The notes beneath the pieces are model-generated. The model had not been told where the DNA came from, searched no databases, and saw only the letters and a list, made by a program, of their open reading frames with translations. The position numbers and the translations under genes were made by a program. From NCBI GenBank assembly GCA_026415775.1, contig JAOAGL010000001.1:6282-70281 (forward strand): a stretch of 64,000 bases of DNA. The letters are read 5' to 3'. The DNA is from Patescibacteria group bacterium. Lineage in GTDB: Bacteria > Patescibacteriota > Minisyncoccia > UBA6257 > JAAZHW01. This document shows positions 3,783 through 56,023 of this stretch, piece after piece (within the stretch, counting starts at the first letter, position 1; each line of letters begins with the position of its first letter).

Positions 3783-4844
3783 TTATGGCAATGGTAAAGG
3801 GCTATATTGCTTTTTATTATTTAATTCCTTAATTGTTTCCTCAATAACAATAATTGTTGGTAAGGCAATCAAAACACCGACCACCCCACCTAATTTGGCG
3901 CCAATCAATAGTCCTACTATTACAATCACTGGATTAAAACCAATGGTTTTTTTCATTACTAAAGGAATAAGTATATCATTTTCTAGACGCTGAATAAGAA
4001 TAAAAACTAAAGCAGTCCAAAGTGCTAAGGGAACTGATTGAGTTAAGGCAATAAGAGTTGCTACAATGCCTGCTAAAATTGGACCAACAACTGGTACTAA
4101 TTCACACAAAGCAGCAAAGACAGCAAGAATAAAAGCATACTTTACGCCCAAAATCAACATCGCCGCTAAAACCATTATACCGATAAAACCACTTAACAAA
4201 ATCTGGGTACGCAACCATTTACCAAGTCGCAACTTGGAACGATACCAAATTCTTAAAACCGATTCTTCAATGCTTATTGGCAAAACAAATTTAATAAAAT
4301 CCGCCACACCATCCTTTTTAATCAAAAGATAAAAAGAAATTAAGAAAACAGTCACCACCGAAACAATACCACCACCCAAATTAAACAAAATTGCAAAAAA
4401 TTTTCCCGCATCTTCAAACAAAGACCCTTGATAAGTTGTTAGAAAATCCAAAATTTTTTCTCCTAATTGCGAGGTGGTGGCCGAACCTAAGATTTTTTCT
4501 GAAAAACCCGGCAATAAACTGCCAATATTTAAAATCTGTTCATAAACAATCGGGAAAGAAAAATATAAAACAATAGCGAGCAAAATTAAAATGAAAAGAT
4601 AAATAGCCGCCGCACCCAAAAAACGCGGAATTCTTTTCTTTTCTAGCCGATCAACAAGCGGCGAAAAAGCAGCAGCAATAATAATCGCCACAAAAAGCAT
4701 TACAAAAATTGAACGCAAAACATAAACCAGCGCTAAAATAATAATTAGCAAAATCAACCTCCAAAAACTCATCCACGATATCTCAATTTTTTTCACCTCC
4801 TCTGGCATTGATTTTATTATAGAAAATAAAGATAAAACAAGCAA
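3783..4844 (-). CDS. AI-2E family transporter (PerM/UPF0118 permease)
   Basis: 353 aa, 7-8 TM segments. C-terminal ...GVLIALPTIIVIEE... region is characteristic of the AI-2E family. Confidence 0.7.
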   Translation of the reverse strand: MLVLSLFSIIKSMPEEVKKIEISWMSFWRLILLIIILALVYVLRSIFVMLFVAIIIAAAFSPLVDRLEKKRIPRFLGAAAIYLFILILLAIVLYFSFPIVYEQILNIGSLLPGFSEKILGSATTSQLGEKILDFLTTYQGSLFEDAGKFFAILFNLGGGIVSVVTVFLISFYLLIKKDGVADFIKFVLPISIEESVLRIWYRSKLRLGKWLRTQILLSGFIGIMVLAAMLILGVKYAFILAVFAALCELVPVVGPILAGIVATLIALTQSVPLALWTALVFILIQRLENDILIPLVMKKTIGFNPVIVIVGLLIGAKLGGVVGVLIALPTIIVIEETIKELNNKKQYSPLPLP

Positions 4845-52516: not shown

Positions 52517-53350
52517 TCAATTTTCCTCCCTAAAGTCCCGCAGGGACATGCCCCGCGGGTTTCTTTCTACATCATCCTCTGCGCGGAGAGGAAGCTTTTT
52601 TCCTCTCCTTTTTTCTACTTTTTTTTCTACATCGACCTTGACCTTCTTCTGCTCCCGGTCTGATGGTACTTCAACGGGAACGGGATCAGGAAGAAATGGC
52701 TGAGAGTGAGGGGAAGGCTGCTGGGGCTGTGGAGGGTTCATCCTCGGCCGAGGAGTACTCGACCGAAGAACATTCTCCAATCCCTTTTCCCACTGGGGAT
52801 TGGAGATGCGATCGGGCTCGAAAAGCTCGACCGCCACTTCTAGAAGTTCCTCCGTGACCTCGCCGCGGAGAAACTCCCGGAGTCCCTCCTTGTCCCGCAC
52901 AAAGTGCGGGACATCAATCGCTACCCGCTCCTTTTGCAGGAGCTGGTAACGAGCCCCCTGGCGGACTACTGCAAGGTAATCCGCCACTAGTTTTCGGCCA
53001 TGGAACCGCACCACGGTTCCATTCCGAAAAACTATGAGCCATTTCTCCAACTTTTGATTAAAGCGGGGAGTGACTCTTTTGCCTTCCCCTACCAGCACCA
53101 CCCAGCCACGAGGGCCAGGAACGGCCAGCGAGAGCTGAAACCAGTGAGGCTGCCCTAGTTGGGGCAGTATCACCCACGGTTTCACCTCCCCTGTGGAGAG
53201 GATTTCGCACGGGATTTTCACCCGTGCATCCTCACCAAGGTAGACGCCCTGCAGGGCGCCTCCCTTGATTCTCTGCCGAATTTCTCGGCAGAATTCCTGC
53301 CCGAGCCGCTCCCAGACGGCCCAACATCTTAAAAATTTTAAGCCTATCAT
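52517..53350 (-). CDS. Hypothetical protein, GC-rich (about 50% GC) gene, Pro/Arg-rich C-terminus
   Basis: 277 aa. Composition (R, G, P, V rich) and codon usage are unlike neighbouring genes. No recognised domain. Own terminator GCGGCTGCGTT-GTTCCAA-CGCAGCCGC at about 52470-52505. Confidence 0.5.
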   Translation of the reverse strand: MIGLKFLRCWAVWERLGQEFCREIRQRIKGGALQGVYLGEDARVKIPCEILSTGEVKPWVILPQLGQPHWFQLSLAVPGPRGWVVLVGEGKRVTPRFNQKLEKWLIVFRNGTVVRFHGRKLVADYLAVVRQGARYQLLQKERVAIDVPHFVRDKEGLREFLRGEVTEELLEVAVELFEPDRISNPQWEKGLENVLRSSTPRPRMNPPQPQQPSPHSQPFLPDPVPVEVPSDREQKKVKVDVEKKVEKRRGKKLPLRAEDDVERNPRGMSLRDFREEN

Positions 53351-53427
53351 TTTAAACCTCCTTTTAAATTTTCAAACAAGGTGTGGCCCGGGCCGACAGC
53401 CCTGACGGTTCACCTTGCGCTGATTTA

Positions 53428-53456
53428 AGAATATCATAAAAACTCAAAAAAGTCAA
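53428..53456 (-). promoter_or_regulatory. Sigma70-type promoter (TTGACT-N17-TGaTATTCT) for the 277-aa GC-rich gene
   Basis: Minus-strand reading ATATTGACTTTTTTGAGTTTTTATGATATTCT. Member of the repeated promoter module. Confidence 0.55.
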
Positions 53457-53476
53457 TATAAATAAAAAGGAGGGAC

Positions 53477-54091
53477 TTAGTCCCTCCAACGATCGGGTGA
53501 GGAGGATGTTAAATCCTCCTTCACCCACACTGAGTTCCTTTCCAGAATGGAAAGGAACTCTTCGTACGTCCGCGGTCTTTTCAAACCGCGGACGTAAACA
53601 ATCACCTCCCGCGGAGCGCGGGAGGGATTGTGGTCCCAGGAGGTTAAATACCTTAACCTCCCGGCACCATCTCTCTTGATGCCATTAATGGCATCAAGAG
53701 AGACCCCCAGCCTCTGGAGGACCTTCTCCAGGTCCTCCATAGACCGGAAGCACCACATTGCCCTAAAGGGCAACTGGTGCTCCCGGCAATATCGCCGGGG
53801 GAAATCTCTGTCTTCCTCCACAGGAGGAAGACAGAGGACTTTGTGTGGGGAAATCCGGTAAACTCTACCGGATTTCACCTTCCATAACCCTCCTCCGCGG
53901 GAGGAGGAAATAATCCTTCCTCCCGTACCCACTTCCAGGATCCACCCGGAAGTGGGGTCCTGGGGATCCGGGACCAGAATCATTCTGGCTCCAGAATCCC
54001 CCTTCCGAATTACTTGCGGCCCAGCCGCAAGCAATTCGGAGGAAACCAGAATTTCAAAAAAATTTGCCATTTTTTCCTCCTTTTCCCCCAC
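53477..54091 (-). CDS. Hypothetical protein, GC-rich gene
   Basis: 204 aa, Arg/Gly/Ser-rich. Preceded by RBS AAGGAGGAAAAAATG and a structured GC-rich 5' leader. No recognised domain. Confidence 0.5.
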   Translation of the reverse strand: MGEKEEKMANFFEILVSSELLAAGPQVIRKGDSGARMILVPDPQDPTSGWILEVGTGGRIISSSRGGGLWKVKSGRVYRISPHKVLCLPPVEEDRDFPRRYCREHQLPFRAMWCFRSMEDLEKVLQRLGVSLDAINGIKRDGAGRLRYLTSWDHNPSRAPREVIVYVRGLKRPRTYEEFLSILERNSVWVKEDLTSSSPDRWRD

Positions 54092-55254: not shown

Positions 55255-55557
55255 TTAATTAAAGTATTTCGTTAGCAAAATTTTTCTAAATCCATTTTTC
55301 CACATAACCTCCATAGCCTGCAACTTTCCTCCTCCAAAAAGCACTCTAATCCCAAAAAATTTTGGTTCGCCATCCTTAAATCTAGTTAGTCCAATAACAT
55401 GACCCTCCTTTAATTTTGTAAAATCTACTTTGCTTAACCATTCGGAAACTTTATTGGCATCTTCTTCGGAAATTTCTTTTTGCACAAAAAGCAGGTCCAA
55501 AATCTTTATTGCTTCTTTTTCAATTTCTTCAATAAAATCATCAGTCAGTTCTTTCAT
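55255..55557 (-). CDS. Hypothetical small protein
   Basis: 100-aa acidic N-terminus. No motif recognised. Preceded by a promoter-module copy. Confidence 0.4.
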   Translation of the reverse strand: MKELTDDFIEEIEKEAIKILDLLFVQKEISEEDANKVSEWLSKVDFTKLKEGHVIGLTRFKDGEPKFFGIRVLFGGGKLQAMEVMWKNGFRKILLTKYFN

Positions 55558-55623
55558 TTTCTCCTCCTTTTTATACCCGAACCTTAAATGGGTTGGGCAT
55601 TTAATTATTAAAAAGCTGCCTAT

Positions 55624-55652
55624 ATTTCAGCATAAAAATTTTAAAAAGTCAA
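55624..55652 (-). promoter_or_regulatory. Sigma70-type promoter (TTGACT-N17-TGAAAT), member of the repeated module
   Basis: Minus-strand reading ATTGACTTTTTAAAATTTTTATGCTGAAATATA. Confidence 0.5.
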
Positions 55653-55660
55653 TGGTTTGA

Positions 55661-55701
55661 ATAAAAAATAAAAGCCCCAGCTCTTCGAGAAGAGCTGGGG
55701 C
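55661..55701 (-). terminator. Rho-independent terminator
   Basis: Minus strand: GCCCCAGCTCTTC-TCGA-AGAGCTGGGGC followed by TTTTATTTTTT. Confidence 0.8.
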
Positions 55702-55832
55702 CGTTCCGTACCTTTTTTTACGCCCCCGGAATTTTGGGGCAACCTCCTACTGATAGGAGGGTTGTTAAAAAATAACTAGTCCGGTGCCAATGGCCTTTTG
55801 GCCATCATTCTCACCTCCTTTTTTAAAATATC
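55702..55832 (-). ncRNA. Candidate small RNA / structured leader with a 10-codon ORF
   Basis: Lies between a perfect TTGACT-N17-TATAAT promoter (55839-55867) and the terminator at 55661-55701. Contains AGGAGGTG then ATGATGGCCAAAAGGCCATTGGCACCGGACTAG (MMAKRPLAPD), itself a palindrome (ATGGCC-AAAA-GGCCAT), plus further hairpins (CCTCCT-ATCAGT-AGGAGG; CCCC..GGGG). Confidence 0.4.
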
Positions 55833-55838
55833 TAAACT

Positions 55839-55867
55839 AATTATATCATAAATTATTTTTTAAGTCA
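55839..55867 (-). promoter_or_regulatory. Consensus-like sigma70 promoter (TTGACT-N17-TGATATAAT) driving the candidate sRNA
   Basis: Minus-strand reading TTGACTTAAAAAATAATTTATGATATAAT. Confidence 0.6.
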
Positions 55868-56023
55868 AGGGTGGAAAATTCAACGAATTTCCCCTGCTTT
55901 GGGAATCTTTGTTTTTTTATTAGTTAATAATCGCCAGAAATTATAAATAAAAAACTGCTCCCGCCGAAAGGCGGGAGCAGCCAAAGCTGGGATTAACCCA
56001 GCCAACCCCTCAAGGAAAGGGTG

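Follow-up and report, generated by a model that had tools for sequence, protein, structure and literature searches.

A candidate small RNA gene in the hypervariable spacer of a patescibacterial cell-envelope gene island

Does a compact promoter-to-terminator unit with a frame of ten codons specify an RNA, a peptide, or a leader for the genes behind it? The question is raised by a locus in the metagenome-assembled, AT-rich (33% GC) genome of a Patescibacteria group bacterium, of which a stretch of 64,000 nt (contig JAOAGL010000001.1, hereafter the window) was analysed. A first-pass annotation, made from the letters alone, had described a promoter, a Shine-Dalgarno (SD) sequence, a 10-codon ORF, three GC-rich hairpins and an intrinsic terminator at this place, and all of these are present on the minus strand (Table 1). 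The unit thus has its own promoter and its own terminator and holds no long ORF, the combination by which an independent sRNA gene is recognised.

The -35 hexamer of the promoter (P1) is separated from its extended -10 by a spacer of 17 nt. We infer that transcription begins near 55833, and the predicted transcript, running to about 55664, has a length of about 170 nt instead of the 150 nt or so proposed earlier. The full SD 10-mer AAGGAGGTGA occurs only twice on the minus strand of the window, and here it stands 5 and 8 nt from two consecutive ATGs. The ORF reads ATG ATG GCC AAA AGG CCA TTG GCA CCG GAC TAG, and the frame remains open through the terminator after this single TAG. Read-through was rejected since TAG is a normal stop in this genome (9 of 55 genes). 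No ORF overlapping the unit is longer than 33 codons, and the one of that length begins with a codon that is not conserved. The transcribed part has 45% GC and the hairpin regions 54-57%, and no gap between ORFs of at least 80 codons inside the window is larger than the one that contains the unit (466 nt, 55558-56023).

Table 1. Positions of the features of the unit and its boundaries in the window (L015 is the homologous locus described in the text).
Feature	Position	Strand	Basis or remark
Own terminator of the 620-aa gene	55982-55953	-	
P1 -35 hexamer TTGACT	55863..55868	-	sequence match
P1 extended -10 TGaTATAAT	55840..55848	-	score 11/12, with TG extension
Shine-Dalgarno AAGGAGGTGA	55811..55820	-	within a ~15-nt stretch without counterpart in L015
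10-codon ORF MMAKRPLAPD + TAG (ATGATGGCCAAAAGGCCATTGGCACCGGACTAG)	55776..55808	-	left edge of the conserved block
Hairpin H1, ATGGCC-AAAA-GGCCAT	55790..55805	-	folding; covers the second ATG
Linker TGGCACCGGACTAGTTATTTTTTAA, conserved	55765..55789	-	predicted mostly single-stranded; candidate seed region
Hairpin H2, CAACCCTCCT-ATCAGT-AGGAGGTTG	55740..55764	-	folding; anti-SD-like arm pairs with SD-like arm
Hairpin H3, GCCCC-AAAATTCCG-GGGGC	55722..55740	-	folding
A-rich linker GTAAAAAAAGGTACGGAAC, conserved	55703..55721	-	comparison with L015
Intrinsic terminator H4	55662..55702	-	13-bp stem 55702-55673, then U-tract
P2, TTGACT-17-TGcTGAAAT	55624..55652	-	right boundary, outside the unit

How far these elements exceed chance was estimated from shuffled sequences. 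Promoter matches of at least 11/12 number 5 in the window against 4.9 expected, so a near-consensus match of the P1 type is, in so AT-rich a sequence, not by itself beyond chance. TG-extended sites of P1 quality number 2 against 0.28 expected, and 9 of 300 shuffles reach 2. Folding of the unit gives a z-score of -4.8, which weakens to only -2.1 once the terminator is removed, and the complementary strand folds just as well. P1 also has a 13-mer, TTTATGATATAAT, in common with the promoter P3 (54202) of a neighbouring gene, and P1, P2, P3 and P4 (near 53455) form one family of island promoters, TTGACTTTTT..AA..TTTTTATGaTATAAT. Most island genes carry a terminator as well, and the design of P1 is that of the promoters of the neighbouring real genes. 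The similar promoters at 55868, 55652, 54202 and ~53455 (minus strand) mark four consecutive transcription units within about 2.4 kb, and the best two copies of the family sit at units specific to the window, namely the present one and an orphan 197-aa gene (197/204-aa ORF), for which a homologue search matched only its own NCBI entry. P1 also resembles sequences that precede the SLT gene in relatives, a likeness due to promoter and SD signals common to both.

The unit lies downstream of a gene for a 620-aa peptidoglycan-binding protein (56024-57886, minus strand) that has its own terminator. On the other side the -35 hexamer of P2 begins at 55652, 20 nt past the H4 stem, and P2 is the predicted promoter of an operon consisting of a 100-aa ORF (no known family), an SLT_2 lytic transglycosylase and a 68-aa holin-like membrane protein. 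Beyond the holin-like gene are two ORFs of about 55% GC without family (52517-54091, minus strand), each behind an AT-rich promoter of native type, and then a second peptidoglycan-binding protein gene. One of the two is the 197/204-aa ORF mentioned above. The other, the 277-aa ORF, is kept in relatives (identities of 75% in L001, 59% in L015 and 53% in L014; the L001 gene has 57% GC) and has no Pfam or PHROG match. Here and below, L numbers denote related loci that were found via homologues of the neighbouring proteins (n = 15). P2 belongs to promoter repeat family D5 and is nearly identical in L001, L002, L003 and L015; of the five genomes in which it is conserved, three are without the unit. 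The new promoter that had been reported immediately after the terminator is there, with the qualification that its -10 (TGcTGAAAT in the window; hexamers TGAAAT and TGGAAT) is imperfect. Since the usual A at position 2 is missing, P2 may be weak. Together with its 5'UTR (55545-55655, minus strand; L001 4900-5000), P2 is almost 100% identical in L001, L002 and L003, while the 100-aa protein is only 79-83% identical in these loci; conservation is thus higher in this non-coding stretch than in the coding region behind it. A hairpin in this 5'UTR, GCCCAACC/GGTTCGGGT, has two substitutions with pairing kept.

The spacer after the 620-aa gene is hypervariable. It is reached by 13 of the 15 loci, which give nine different sequence versions, and the unit is missing from eight of these, including that of the closest relative, L001, whose 620-aa protein is 96% identical to that of the window. 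The flanks of the L001 and L002 spacers (P2 and its 5'UTR on one side, the upstream terminator on the other) are nearly identical to those of the window; between them stand some 155 nt of other sequence that include a 34-bp palindrome, CTTAACAATTTTGACGATCGTCAAGATTGTTAAG (4795-4830). Similarity between the variable segments of L001 and of the window was not significant (z = 1.4-1.7), and a suggestive global alignment with L001 was dropped for this reason, along with the idea of a TTATTTTTTA direct repeat on either side of an insertion. In L006 the spacer is short. Inverted 14-mers, GACATCGCAAGTCG, form arrays in L007 (4960-5150), L008, L014 (4730-5140) and L016 (4970-5020), GC-rich REP-like repeats, TCAGGATGACAGAATG..., are found in L012 and L013, and other GC-rich hairpins in L009-L011. 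The gene that directly follows the spacer in L009 and L010 is the second peptidoglycan-binding gene, which shows that the whole cassette (100-aa to 277-aa gene) is absent; the L011 spacer is identical to theirs, and its contig ends inside the following gene. The comparison shows the spacer to be a hotspot for the insertion of unrelated small elements or their exchange between lineages. The 620-aa surface-protein gene itself (~2800-4670 in L001 and L002) is 96% identical to that of the window in L001 and 61% in L002, which suggests allelic replacement by recombination; the 99-aa and 287-aa genes are identical between L001 and L002.

The ninth spacer version carries a clear copy of the unit at the same position. 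This locus, L015 (Logan SRR29396569), has a 620-aa homologue 80% identical to that of the window, and blastn aligns 142 nt of the two units with an identity of 79.6% (E = 1e-27); the match runs from precisely the ATG of the ORF (window 55808 = L015 2239) as far as the terminator. When the two were aligned by hand, 91 of the 105 positions in the block that extends from the ATG up to H4 proved identical (87%), whereas fourfold-degenerate sites in the adjacent 620-aa gene are identical at 162 of 251 (65%; Fisher p = 2e-5) and those in two other genes common to both loci at 46-55%. The spacer just upstream of the ATG does not align. With identity so far above that of neutral sites and a flanking spacer that cannot be aligned, the block appears to be under purifying selection. 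The conservation that the first-pass annotation had asked for is thus found in one relative, in the same place and above the neutral level, and the other eight spacer versions are without the unit. Behind the L015 unit stands a P2-like promoter, and the holin-like gene comes straight after it, the 100-aa and SLT genes both being absent.

The best conserved parts of the block are the two linkers and hairpin H2. CATTGGC-CCGGACTAGTTATTTTTT, to the end of the T-run, is identical at 25 of 26 nt, and H2 at 24 of 25, its whole loop included; eight pairs are unchanged, the closing pair is lost, and the CCUCCU/AGGAGG pairing is invariant. In the A-rich linker GCGTAAAAAAAGGT is identical throughout (14/14), the whole segment matching in 16 of 20 columns. 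H3 appears in L015 as ACCAC...GGTGG, with one compensatory change (C-G to A-U), three pairs unchanged and the terminal pair lost. The terminator of L015 has an 11-bp stem in the homologous place (2347-2374) and keeps its U-tract; its sequence differs from that of H4, with three to four compensatory pair changes and one G-U to G-C. A terminator that is functional in both genomes would mean that transcription enters it in both. Compensatory changes are thus seen in H3 (one pair) and H4 (3-4 pairs), H2 being invariant; they come from two sequences only, too few for a statistical covariation test, and amount to an anecdotal 4-5 pairs, most of them in the terminator.

The L015 ORF, ATG GTC GCA ATA AGA TCA TTG GCG CCG GAC TAG (MVAIRSLAPD*), matches that of the window at 26 of 33 nt, with length and stop kept; three codon changes are synonymous and three non-synonymous, and 4 of the 7 nucleotide differences fall at third positions. 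H1 is formed there by AUGGUC-GCAAUAA-GAUCAU, its 3' arm in the same position and its 5' arm shifted by 3 nt onto the only ATG. No SD precedes this ATG; AAAAAGGAGGTGAGA falls in a 15-nt alignment gap, and the predicted leader is only ~9 nt. A promoter-like site, TTGACC-16-AATTAT (9/12), ends ~9-15 nt before the ATG-led block, and MAFFT places its TTGACC (2196-2201) opposite the -35 of P1. The surrounding sequence is not significantly similar, and homology of this site with P1 is not demonstrable. With a promoter-like site and a terminator in two genomes, and a conserved promoter after the terminator, the earlier view that the unit is independent holds.

Searches beyond these two loci gave little. 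At the gathering thresholds of Rfam 15 only tRNAs pass in the window and no family falls on the unit, so the covariance-model search that had been recommended assigns it to none. Below threshold the unit matches PyrG_leader (25.9 bits, threshold 65), in an alignment that rests mainly on the terminator hairpin, and PyrR (23.7 bits, threshold 54). No family falls on the L015 copy either, at gathering or at permissive thresholds, where matches are again all below threshold. A pattern search, blastn and a covariance model of the unit (R1) found no second copy in the 64-kb window or at the 15 other loci, and R1 finds only the window and L015 copies, its weak matches looking like other hairpins or terminators. 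A REP- or MITE-like element was rejected because the 64-kb window and the 15 other loci contain no dispersed copies; single-copy in the window and absent from other loci, the unit does not behave as a repeat family. The pattern CCTCCT..AGGAGGTTGCCCC..GGGGG has no match in genome_contigs or metagenome_contigs, a zero that excludes only near-identical copies since L015 itself would not match it. Genome scans with the 100-aa neighbour protein and with the conserved 5'UTR returned nothing, the collections apparently being without this lineage. Scans of viral collections gave one chance match, in a GC-rich phage, and blastn against a phage collection matched only the AT-rich promoter part. A phage origin was not upheld, as PHROGs matches near the unit are limited to the peptidoglycan-binding domain, with no Q-like or other phage genes. 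An RNAduplex scan of the window for targets gave no convincing partner, and a small literature search turned up no paper on regulatory RNAs of this kind in Patescibacteria.

The arrangement of SD, short ORF, hairpins, terminator and operon, with the unit directly upstream of the P2-driven operon in both genomes, recalls the trp, his and pyrBI attenuators and would suit a cis-acting leader, in which translation of the ORF sets read-through of H4 into the 100-aa/SLT/holin-like operon and so adds to the output of a possibly weak P2. A possible pairing for such a switch exists: if the 3' arm of the terminator is left out, the end of the ORF (GGCRCCGGAC) pairs in both sequences with ACGGCC at the base of the 5' arm. 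A ribosome translating the ORF would keep these two segments apart and thereby promote termination. The antiterminator, however, has 4-6 bp closing a loop of ~75 nt against 11-13 bp in the terminator, is paired in a different register in each genome and is not backed by covariation. P2 moreover lies between terminator and operon and is kept in relatives without the unit, which makes the operon independent of P1; the L015 ORF has no SD, neither MMAKRPLAPD nor MVAIRSLAPD has a regulatory codon or amino-acid run, and the operon downstream differs, with the holin-like gene alone in L015. The intervening promoter, the missing codon runs, the weak antiterminator and the copy without SD also set the unit apart from the known attenuators. 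Control of read-through is for these reasons unlikely, and we think no better of the ribosome-blocking scheme. Two further systems bear comparison. In phage lambda a short '6S' transcript from pR'-tR' lies upstream of the lysis genes and is extended through Q antitermination. The present unit is similar in that a strong promoter would yield a short terminated transcript (~170-190 nt), with genes for a lytic transglycosylase and a holin-like protein directly behind it; it differs in that Q-like and phage genes are not found nearby, the downstream operon has its own promoter, and relatives that retain the operon are without the unit. As in erm and cat translation attenuation, an AGGAGG lies buried in a hairpin (H2) behind a short ORF, but UUG stands at zero spacing after this AGGAGG, and UUA in L015, so that no start codon is conserved; there is no resistance gene, and the terminator comes next.

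A gene for a 10-residue peptide (consensus M-x-A-x-R-x-L-A-P-D), its mRNA merely stabilised and terminated by the hairpins, would account for the perfect 10-nt SD in the window and for the ATG, length, frame and TAG kept in L015, as well as for the synonymous and third-position changes listed above. It accounts less well for an L015 copy with no SD and a leader of ~9 nt, for a start codon that lies inside H1 in both genomes, and for a linker, H2 and A-rich linker that are the best conserved parts and all outside the ORF; ten codons are also too few for a test of coding selection. The peptide is hydrophilic, and to our knowledge it resembles no known toxin or leader peptide. A type I toxin-antitoxin pair, which takes a hydrophobic toxin of ~20-60 aa and an overlapping antisense RNA, was rejected, since the peptide has 10 hydrophilic residues and no antisense promoter of comparable quality was found. 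A peptide gene is, in sum, improbable. It is also unlikely that the transcript has no function, the unit being the shell of a lost cassette gene, reduced to promoter, RBS, start codon and terminator, or a set of DNA-level protein-binding sites or palindromic elements. Such an origin would be in keeping with a hypervariable spacer in which relatives have unrelated palindromes, inverted 14-mer arrays and REP-like repeats, with a promoter, SD and terminator layout seen at every island gene, with the patchy distribution and the frame left open after one TAG, and with complementary arms, which DNA palindromes would also have. Against it stand the identity of 87% versus 65% beside a spacer that cannot be aligned, a terminator stem and U-tract that survive 3-4 double changes, as expected only if transcription enters, and the single copy absent from the other 15 loci. 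A pseudogene was set aside because no frame of the unit resembles the island proteins and none has any protein similarity.

We tentatively favour an accessory sRNA gene whose product is a structured RNA of ~150-170 nt, made from its own sigma-70-type promoter and ended by an intrinsic terminator likewise its own. The unit would probably represent an undescribed, patchily distributed family with two known members, kept by selection in some lineages. Among the three readings first offered (sRNA, tiny peptide gene, attenuator remnant), conservation in L015 and the changes in H3 and H4 speak for the first; the other two are weaker. An RNA is preferred to the peptide because the best conserved parts are outside the ORF and one copy has no ribosome-binding site. 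From 5' to 3' this RNA would consist of the ORF-start hairpin, a linker that is GC-rich and then U-rich and single-stranded, the CCUCCU/AGGAGG hairpin, a second GC hairpin, the A-rich linker and the terminator. The RNA itself would be the functional product, a riboregulator acting on a target through either or both of two elements, the unpaired conserved linkers and the SD/anti-SD-like hairpin. The ORF would not be the conserved product; it may be translated in the window strain, with its perfect SD, and probably is not in L015. The gene would then sit in a recombination-prone spacer of a cell-envelope island, where only some lineages have it. Counted against an RNA gene are its absence from eight of nine spacer versions, the lack of an Rfam match and of a convincing target in the window, promoters that are not demonstrably homologous between the two copies, and an opposite strand whose fold is as good. 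The H4 pairs, the bulk of the covariation, tell nothing beyond termination, and the SD, ATG and retained 10-codon frame of the window fit a coding or leader role equally.

Dual-function sRNAs with a short ORF occur in low-GC bacteria, such as SR1 of Bacillus subtilis and RNAIII of Staphylococcus aureus. The unit is like these in having its own promoter and intrinsic terminator, a length of ~150-200 nt, GC hairpins between conserved unpaired stretches, a terminal short ORF and a lineage-restricted distribution. It is unlike them in the lack of Rfam similarity, an ORF of only 10 codons, a C-rich motif placed in a stem rather than a loop, and a host among the Patescibacteria. It offers a candidate small RNA in bacteria with very small genomes, beside a variable cell-envelope island and with evidence of selection; with two known members the practical importance of the family is limited. 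A bolder reading, which we consider very improbable, is that the unit is the first riboregulator class specific to Patescibacteria, with a ligand- or ribosome-sensing fold that gates read-through into the cell-wall-cleaving operon. That fold, just as conjectural, would be built from the invariant SD/anti-SD hairpin and the conserved junction sequences and have a closing helix in which the ORF end and U-tract pair with the A-tract and terminator base around H2 and H3. If true, these minimal episymbionts would control the remodelling of their envelope, or attack on the host, by means of an RNA switch.

Two repeats elsewhere in the window were also recorded. Within the ORF at 41166-44489 (minus strand; 1107 aa), a 102-nt unit is present in 6.9 tandem copies of 87% identity (43476-44174), which corresponds to about seven 34-residue protein repeats. 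One end of a tRNA gene (44520-44592) occurs a second time ~139 nt away as a 35-nt direct repeat (44572-44606 and 44711-44745, 91% identical), a possible scar of an integration or excision event.
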